From: Escherichia phage T2
Direction: 5' to 3' (one strand)
Sequence record: NC_054931.1
Length of the DNA: 64,000 nucleotides
The notes below the pieces were generated by a model. That model did not search any database, was not told where the DNA came from, and saw only the letters and a list, made by a program, of their open reading frames with translations. Within the stretch, counting starts at the first letter, position 1; every line of letters begins with the position of its first letter. Shown here in pieces: positions 37,739-38,970 of this stretch. The position numbers and the translations under genes are program-made.

Positions 37739-37762
37739 TTTATTCTCCTCAGTAGTTGATAG

Positions 37763-37795
37763 GGTAATAATATCACCACCCTATCTAAAAGTAAA
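37763..37795 (-). promoter_or_regulatory. T4-type early promoter
   Basis: Forward agtaaac at 37790-37796, 17-bp spacer, -10 rc TATTAT at 37767-37772. Confidence 0.55.
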
Positions 37796-37806
37796 CAGTT
37801 TATAAA

Positions 37807-38115
37807 CTATTTTATTCCGCGTGATGCAATTGTATTCTGCCGTTTAGCACCAGTTTGTTTAAAGTCATGATTGTCGATTTGATCGGTACGAGCAACTCCG
37901 AATGATGATTTGATCTTAGCTTTAGATCCTTTAGTTATAGAAATAAACATCTCGGAAGCCCCTTTCTTAAAGTCCGAGGCGATTACTTCAACGCCGTTCT
38001 TAGCAAGTGACTTCAGAATTGCCTCTGCATACTCATCGTCAAGACTCGTCTGAGTATTAATAACGAATGTCTTTGGCGCAGCCGCTTCATTGATAAATTC
38101 TTTAAATGTTTTCAT
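37807..38115 (-). CDS. Internal-protein-like (ipI-locus) protein with MKTFKEF leader
   Basis: 102-aa ORF MKTFKEFINEAAAPK...; leader with I-N-E cleavage-type motif; own early promoter. Confidence 0.6.
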   Translation of the reverse strand: MKTFKEFINEAAAPKTFVINTQTSLDDEYAEAILKSLAKNGVEVIASDFKKGASEMFISITKGSKAKIKSSFGVARTDQIDNHDFKQTGAKRQNTIASRGIK

Positions 38116-38199
38116 TTTATTTTCCTAATTAATTTTGATGAGGTAATAGTATCACAACTAAAACCCTATGTAAACAACTTTGTGAAATTATTTTAAATC
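38111..38199. repeat. Copy 1 of duplicated 89-bp regulatory/5' module (gene start, RBS, early promoter)
   Basis: Near-identical to 38438..38526 except a central ~20 bp. Confidence 0.7.
38146..38176 (-). promoter_or_regulatory. T4-type early promoter
   Basis: Forward tgtaaac at 38169-38175, -10 atagta at 38146-38151. Confidence 0.6.
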
Positions 38200-38442
38200 T
38201 TCTAATCGTTTCTTCATCTTAGAACCGTTCTTAGCGATTTCGCCTGCATCAGAGCATAATGCTAAAAGCGCTTTAACTTTAGTTTGGTCTCCTTTAAAAG
38301 ATGAAGGATCAACAGCAGCAAGTTCTTTAATACGAGAGAAAAGACGCTCAGCTTCAGCTAAAGCCATTCCAAGTTTTACTTCCATACCATGGGAAGATTC
38401 AGTAATAGTAGTTTTTGTAGCAAACTCTTTGAAAGTTTTCAT
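38188..38442 (-). CDS. Internal-protein-like (ipI-locus) protein with MKTFKEF leader, paralogue of 37807..38115
   Basis: 84-aa ORF MKTFKEFATKTTITESSHG...; leader with I-T-E motif. Confidence 0.6.
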   Translation of the reverse strand: MKTFKEFATKTTITESSHGMEVKLGMALAEAERLFSRIKELAAVDPSSFKGDQTKVKALLALCSDAGEIAKNGSKMKKRLEDLK

Positions 38443-38526
38443 TTTATTTTCCTAATTAATTTTGATGAGATAATAGTATCACTACCTCATCAGTATGTAA
38501 ACAACTTTGTGAAATTATTTTAAATC
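38438..38526. repeat. Copy 2 of duplicated 89-bp regulatory/5' module
   Basis: See copy 1. Confidence 0.7.
38473..38502 (-). promoter_or_regulatory. T4-type early promoter
   Basis: Forward tgtaaac at 38496-38502, -10 atagta at 38473-38478. Confidence 0.6.
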
Positions 38527-38970
38527 ATCTGCCCAATCGAGTTTAAGAGGCTCTTTGTATTCACGATCTAATACGACCGGAATTTGTACATCACCGCTAA
38601 ATGATAGGGGCCCAACATTATAAGACAATGTTATATGCGGTGTGTAATCATCAAAATCATGTGTAGCACCTAATGCCCGCGCATACATGTGTCGACAGCG
38701 CAGATATTCAGAATCTAGCACAAGTACAAGAGTCGATCCATCTTGTGTTTTCCATACTTCTAAATGTCCAGAAGAAGCTACTTCAAAACTTCCACTCGAT
38801 GGAACATATGGAACATTTACTCTTGAATAACATATAGTCGAATGAATTTTTTCTCTAGGAACTGGATTAGGAACACGTAAAGAGCGCTGGAGTTCTTCCA
38901 GCGCATCAAGTGTTAATTCTGAAAACTTAGCTGCTACATAAAGACCCGTTGAAAAGTCTTTAAATTCCAT
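38515..38970 (-). CDS. 57B: gp57B-like protein
   Basis: 151-aa ORF immediately downstream of 57A, as in T4. Confidence 0.7.

Follow-up and report, generated by a model that had tools for sequence, protein, structure and literature searches.

What recurs between genes 57B and trna.4 of Escherichia phage T2, where two adjacent genes share a leader and the DNA before it and then encode unrelated proteins, and what would such proteins do? The genes lie on the minus strand of the 64,000-nucleotide (nt) stretch of T2 analysed here (NC_054931.1; hereafter the window), whose positions are used throughout and become MH751506 coordinates when 31997 is added. They occupy one of two polymorphic internal protein (IP) loci, the other extending from e to vs.8. 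Judged by sequence, the two open reading frames (ORFs) are the ip5 and ip7 genes of T2, names that are already given in GenBank records of T2, RB32 and RB15. We consider it quite probable that this is an ipI-type polymorphic locus with two cassettes, in which non-homologous mature domains stand behind a shared module of promoter, ribosome-binding site (RBS) and capsid-targeting sequence (CTS), that the products are packaged, cut by gp21 and injected, most likely as nuclease inhibitors with one target each, and that the blocks recombine. Gene identity, module anatomy, promoter motif and cassette shuffling rest on the data presented here, and the remainder of this account is drawn from T4 biology. 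The two genes and their predicted propeptides are:

38188..38442, minus strand: ip5, 84 amino acids, beginning MKTFKEFATKTTITE and then SSHG...
38398-38442, minus strand: predicted propeptide of ip5, residues 1-15; predicted mature Ip5 of 69 amino acids, isoelectric point (pI) 9.2, a helical hairpin
37807..38115, minus strand: ip7, 102 amino acids, beginning MKTFKEFINE and then AAAPK...
38086-38115, minus strand: predicted propeptide of ip7, residues 1-10; predicted mature Ip7 of 92 amino acids, pI 9.65

Both products match PHROG families of the class 'internal head protein' (phrog_3499 at 1.8e-47 for Ip5 and phrog_2667 at 5e-41 for Ip7), and their identity to annotated proteins is 86-100% for Ip5 and 68-95% for Ip7. 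T2 Ip5 equals the RB32 and RB15 proteins except for one missing alanine, and T2 Ip7 is 86-95% identical to its full-length Tequatrovirus homologues. In a megablast search of the phage collection, the region 37556-38514 was 100% identical over its full length to the T2 records MH751506.1 and AP018813.1, and a further 780 T-even-type records aligned to it in part. An apparent length difference of 16 nt in other T2 records was an artefact of BLAST pieces that overlap in the repeat, gene lengths being identical.

The original prediction, made from the DNA letters, described tandemly duplicated IP genes, each preceded by a near-identical 89-bp block with RBS, start codon and early promoter. The repeat and its contents were recovered; its real extent is 109 nt, with 97/109 positions identical (89%). 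The two copies are:

38422..38530, minus strand: repeat copy 1, from the end of 57B to leader codons 1-7 of ip5
38095..38203, minus strand: repeat copy 2, from the end of ip5 to leader codons 1-7 of ip7

The copies share exact runs of 33, 12 and 35 nt, compared with a longest exact repeat of ~10 nt on average, and 14 at most, in 200 shuffles of the 1.2-kb region, and the sole variable patch between them covers 11 nt in the promoter spacer. Read along the coding strand, each block passes from the last 3-4 codons and the stop codon of the upstream gene (...DDLK in 57B, ...EDLK in Ip5) through an A/T-rich stretch, the promoter GTTTACA-14 nt-TGATACTAT, the RBS TAGGAAAATAAA and the ATG to leader codons 1-7. 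Upstream of the leaderless trna.4 there is a third, more diverged block of promoter and RBS (37739-37806), so that three blocks stand in tandem. Duplication of the genes was ruled out, given that the mature parts share no similarity. The repeated unit is the 5' module alone, and it is to this module, not to the genes behind it, that the predicted duplication applies.

The leader itself was found as foretold. Both minus-strand ORFs begin with MKTFKEF and contain the I-x-E cleavage-type motif, and the third leader-bearing gene placed at 30440..30913 is ip4, which begins with MKTYQEF. A six-frame translation of the window yields just three instances of the pattern MK[TS][FY].[ED]F. They open the minus-strand ORFs ip5, ip7 and ip4, and in all three leaders residue 4 is aromatic and residue 7 is F, as in a CTS. 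The I-x-E sites, as read from the sequence, are ITE at residues 13-15 of Ip5, INE at 8-10 of Ip7 and ITE at 8-10 of Ip4. Ip5, in which residue 8 is not I and residue 10 is not E, matches the longer propeptide of T4 IPI, which likewise ends in ITE (residues 17-19), whereas Ip7 matches the 10-residue type of IPIII; Ip7 and Ip4 resemble T4 IPII and IPIII, which are injected proteins, in having a 10-residue CTS that ends in I-x-E and in being small and basic. Beyond the leader, BLASTP found no similarity among the mature parts of Ip5, Ip7 and Ip4, in agreement with the unrelated mature sequences claimed at the outset. Nearly all BLASTP alignments were limited to about the first 25 residues, and one longer, weak alignment joined Ip4 to T4 IPII (31% over 77 columns). 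T2 also encodes gp21 and gp22, at record positions 99435-100913, about 3.4 kb past the window end.

The slot between 57B and trna.4 was compared in eight phages. Its conserved flanks in T2, and the arrays found, are:

38515..38970, minus strand: 57B (acb1), conserved upstream flank of the IP slot, annotated 57B in T2; its last codons, DDLK and stop, open repeat copy 1
37556..37738, minus strand: trna.4, a predicted membrane protein of 60 amino acids without leader, conserved downstream flank of the slot
T4: ipI
T2: ip5-ip7
RB32: ip5-ip9-ip7
RB15: ip5-ip9-ip7-ip8
P922: ipI-ip7
G8: ip7
UFV-AREG1: ipI-ip9-ip7-ip8
IME340: ip9-ip7

Eight phages thus gave eight different arrays, which bears out the hypervariable slot that had been proposed and agrees with published work. 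The same kind of promoter/RBS/leader block precedes every leader-bearing ip gene that the scan detected in these phages (two ip9 copies fail the strict promoter pattern by one change in the -35 box), and the block behind 57B is the same regardless of which ip gene comes next. RB32 and RB15 have the same ip5 and ip7 genes as T2, with the same locus, leader and flanking blocks, and differ in their arrays alone. At the T2 ip5/ip7 junction the left part corresponds to the ip5/ip9 junction of RB32 and the right part to its ip9/ip7 junction, with the switch in GTGATACTATTA, the -10 box, indicating that a single crossover between two promoter blocks relates the two arrays by loss or gain of ip9. Compared with T4, whose ipI occupies the same slot behind the same promoter and RBS block, T2 is 97.8% identical over a stretch that takes in 57B, the promoter and ip5 as far as codon 12; homology breaks at 38408, inside the leader, and restarts at 97.3% at position 37776, in the -10 box of trna.4. 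Both these breaks and the T2/RB32 crossover fall inside blocks, and exchange is thus bounded by the shared blocks. Later papers credit Repoila et al. (1994) with having proposed this, and it is reasonable to suppose that the repeated blocks serve as recombination substrates by which entire ip genes would be added, removed or swapped.

The two families are not confined to one locus. Sequences for mature Ip5 occur in 493 phage records, at 90% identity or above in 267 and at <60% in 226, and those for mature Ip7 in 282, among them phages of Klebsiella, Enterobacter, Citrobacter, Salmonella and Erwinia at 44-50% identity. Diverged members of the ip5 family (~52-54%) lie at the e-denV-vs.8 locus of Mosigvirus APCEc01 (1738-2019 of the fetched segment) and of Gaprivervirus VR25, and in VR25 that locus also holds a diverged member of the ip7 family (~46%), the VR25 genes being at 1045-1326 and 2471-2770 of the fetched segment. 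Since the T2 members are at 57B-trna.4, both families have occupied both IP loci. Outside T4-type phages the two families are essentially absent, as far as sequence searches indicate. Among 5.8 billion proteins there were 5 relatives or clusters of Ip5 and 14 of Ip7, all of them close and the named ones all from T4-like phages, and the Ip7 profile, run exhaustively with HMMER on 1.84 billion representatives, matched 4 of them. A metagenomic protein of 664 residues has seven stretches that match positions 44-71 of the Ip7 profile (E = 5.9e-07), and may be a repeat protein or low-complexity noise.

Each block contains a promoter of one kind. The pattern GTTTACW-N14-TGNTAYWAT, which we take to be the T4 early-promoter consensus, has 10 exact matches in the window, lying within 7611-38502, where 100 shuffles gave none. 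The 10 share the minus strand with ip5, ip7, ip4, trna.4 and 57B, and three of them are the sites before ip5, ip7 and trna.4. Together with a promoter-like site before ip4 and the inverted repeats associated with the blocks, these are:

38473..38502, minus strand: T4-type early promoter of ip5, GTTTACA, 14 nt, TGATACTAT
38146..38175, minus strand: T4-type early promoter of ip7, GTTTACA, 14 nt, TGATACTAT
37767..37796, minus strand: diverged early promoter before trna.4, GTTTACT, 14 nt, TGATATTAT; right-hand boundary of the variable slot
30967..30996, minus strand: promoter-like site before ip4, GTCTAC, spacer, TGTGATAGTAT, with one mismatch to the early-promoter pattern, read from sequence and alignment
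38463..38492, minus strand: inverted repeat centred on the -10 box of ip5; intergenic RNA fold of -14.8 kcal/mol, z = -2.7
37758..37785, minus strand: inverted repeat centred on the -10 box of trna.4, with perfect 8-bp arms and a 12-bp stem in the RNA fold; -17.9 kcal/mol, z = -3.7

The RNA fold of the block before ip7 was not significant (z = -0.6), and no intrinsic terminator was found between the genes of the 57B-trna.4 locus. The two hairpins may act in DNA, through recombination, or in read-through RNA, through its stability or processing. A possible parallel to the IP locus is given by the PeSL cassettes (early promoter plus stem-loop) of phages RB49 and phi1, where these elements flank small variable ORFs and allow modular shuffling (PMC2839356). 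Two of the three T2 blocks, those of ip5 and trna.4, have a hairpin at the -10 box. Arbiol et al. (2010) regarded the IP-associated elements as analogues of PeSLs and not as homologues, the promoter being of T4 type and not of the sigma-70 consensus (PMC2839356). Their description of the IP-locus stem-loops as 'weaker, more AT-rich' and variable in size (PMC2839356) agrees with the T2 folds.

As to what the cassettes encode, T4 provides the model. In IPIII, the 10 N-terminal residues are enough for incorporation into the head, residues 4 and 7 governing targeting and residues 8 and 10 processing, and gp21 cleaves after L/I-x-E (PMC9026906). Each T4 IP is present at ~300 copies, co-purifies with the gp22 scaffold and enters the host by ejection (PMC9026906; PMC3012670). 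By analogy, the CTS (MKTFKEF...) would carry the Ip5 and Ip7 precursors into the gp22 scaffolding core of the prohead, where the gp21 prohead protease would cut after I-x-E, that is after E10 in Ip7 and after E15 in Ip5. The basic mature proteins would then remain in the DNA-filled head in many copies and leave with the DNA, and, being ejected together with it, would act before any phage gene expression. Their likeliest job, as suggested by the T4 proteins, would be to block, one protein per target, the host first-response nucleases that attack DNA with glucosylated hydroxymethylcytosine (glucosyl-hmC), such as type IV enzymes of the GmrSD type or similar ones. In T4, a different GmrSD type IV enzyme is inhibited by each of Ip1, Ip2 and Ip3, and there is no cross-protection (PMC12373910): IPI inhibits the enzyme of E. 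coli CT596, and IPII and IPIII those of ECOR21 and ECOR17. Infection of ECOR17 requires IPIII, and IPIII expressed in the host without its CTS still rescues (PMC9391042). The targets of Ip2 and Ip3 were found through deletion mutants on wild E. coli without O-antigen. The neighbour of the T2 slot, 57B, whose product matches the anti-CBASS nuclease Acb1, is likewise in keeping with a counter-defence role.

Several results weigh against this assignment of Ip5 and Ip7. A literature search returned no proteomic data on either protein in T2 heads and no direct evidence of cleavage at the predicted sites, and Ip5 has extra L/I-x-E motifs at residues 28-30 and 38-40. BLASTP detected no similarity of mature Ip5, Ip7 or Ip4 to T4 IPI, IPII or IPIII, and by sequence and fold searches the mature domains of Ip5 and Ip7 resemble no solved inhibitor. 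The one published functional test that came to light, a 2025 screen of ip4-10 against GmrSD variants active on T-even phages, gave no reproducible inhibition, a signal of ip7 against CLS_011 not being reproduced (PMC12373910, Suppl. Fig. 9). The GmrSD enzymes of ECOR21 and ECOR17 restrict T2 (PMC12373910), from which it follows that the T2 IPs do not block those two. Directly upstream of ip5 or ip7 there is no late-promoter motif TATAAATA; the nearest on the minus strand are within gene 1, at 39568, and ahead of e, at 31509 and 31522. A dedicated late promoter for the two genes was searched for and not found, and the late expression needed for prohead loading would require read-through or protein made early.

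The promoters bear on a first alternative, namely that the leader is a mere passenger of the recombination or promoter block and that Ip5 and Ip7 are ordinary early cytoplasmic proteins that are never packaged. Each gene does have its own early promoter but lacks a late one, and the leader DNA does belong to the repeated block. Nevertheless, F/Y4 and F7, which drive the targeting of T4 IPIII, are kept, and a gp21 site follows in every family. The block can also do without the leader, since trna.4 has the same promoter and RBS block and no leader, and the T4 IPs are packaged proteins with a matching promoter block, seen here for ipI. We therefore regard this alternative as very improbable.

A second alternative accepts packaging and injection of Ip5 and Ip7, with targets other than GmrSD, either other first-response defences or host take-over targets. 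The negative screen cited above would fit it, and so would mature domains unrelated to those of IPI, IPII and IPIII. The 57B product matches the Pfam family Acb1, an anti-CBASS nuclease, at E = 2.6e-60, so that the IP slot sits in counter-defence territory, with its cassettes directly downstream of a counter-defence gene; acb1, which the locus abuts, acts against a different type of system. (Many records label 57B 'RNA ligase' or 'hypothetical'.) The reach of the Ip7 family into Klebsiella, Enterobacter, Citrobacter and Erwinia phages points the same way. Against this stand the three IPs of known target, all of which act on GmrSD enzymes, and the very large diversity of GmrSD, of which the screen covered one representative per group in 15 common groups, making its negative outcome a weak one. 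Targets of this other kind seem possible, if somewhat doubtful; were they real, the injected IP arsenal would extend beyond type IV restriction.

Structure prediction, one of the checks that had been proposed, gave generic folds. The AlphaFold model of Ip5 consists of two long antiparallel helices, a helical hairpin, with a predicted local distance difference test (pLDDT) score of ~80, and Foldseek found no match to it in the PDB below E = 0.2. In the Ip7 model, residues 15-80 (pLDDT ~90) form a ferredoxin-like core, a beta-alpha-beta-beta-alpha-beta sandwich, and the basic tail, residues 83-102 (37807-37866), scores below 50. Pfam searches with the mature Ip5 and Ip7 domains gave sub-threshold noise only, and sequence searches of the PDB gave nothing below E = 0.05. 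As modelled, the folds are generic, and neither fold nor sequence indicates function. The Ip7 tail (FKQTGxKRQNTIASRGIK) hardly varies among homologues, even those at 68% identity. Because the tail's last codons run into the trna.4 promoter block, its conservation may be partly a constraint at the DNA level. We looked on it also as a candidate element for binding a target or tethering to DNA, as part of a proposal in which Ip5, Ip7 or both are injected against a first-response defence other than GmrSD, but we judge this proposal unlikely.

Generic folds also speak for a further alternative, in which Ip5 and Ip7 would be mainly structural polycations that assist head assembly, neutralise DNA charge or aid ejection, with no specific host target. 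The mature proteins are small and basic, as their pI values indicate, lysines of the T4 IPs contact DNA phosphates (PMC3012670), and without IPIII heads assemble more slowly and the burst is smaller (PMC9026906). However, such a role leaves unexplained why unrelated folded domains are swapped between close relatives while each family is 85-99% conserved, and a specific enzyme target is known for each of T4 IPI, IPII and IPIII, which are just as basic. This role on its own is improbable, and inhibition of one nuclease by each protein remains the reading that we prefer. The original interpretation of the mature domains as candidate injected effectors is supported.

Much of the background to that reading is already published or annotated: the genes and what they are called, the leader, the variability of the locus between phages, the promoter and stem-loop elements that flank its genes and the idea that its products counter host defences. 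Going by how later papers cite Repoila, it has been on record since 1994 which genes these are, that they have a capsid-targeting leader and that the locus is hypervariable. Added here are the exact length of the block, a third block ahead of trna.4, the T2/RB32 crossover in the -10 box, the generic folds and the finding that each of the two families occurs at both IP loci. In a model phage, the locus is a textbook example of a modular slot for injected counter-defence proteins, and what Ip5, Ip7 and Ip4 target matters when the host range of T-even therapeutic phages is to be predicted.

Around the slot, the order of transcription on the minus strand is gene 1, 57A, 57B, ip5, ip7, trna.4 and the tRNA cluster. 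A single IP gene occupies the second IP locus of T2:

30440..30913, minus strand: ip4, 157 amino acids, leader MKTYQEFITE and then AA..., sole IP gene of the second T2 IP locus, adjoining e

Its product matches Pfam DUF7412 (E = 5.7e-96) and phrog_3155. T4 encodes IPII and IPIII at this e-denV locus, and their mature domains are unrelated to those of Ip5 and Ip7. In T2, ip4 stands alone between e and vs.8, where denV, ipII and ipIII of T4 are absent. T2 vs.8 is annotated as two fragments, and ~316 nt 3' of ip4 are without an annotated gene (30124-30439 and 29951-30299, minus strand). The T2 tRNA cluster (~35380-36660) contains tRNA-Asn, tRNA-Tyr, tRNA-Met and the trna.1 ORF, at a place where T4 has tRNA-Ile, tRNA-Thr and the homing endonuclease gene segB.
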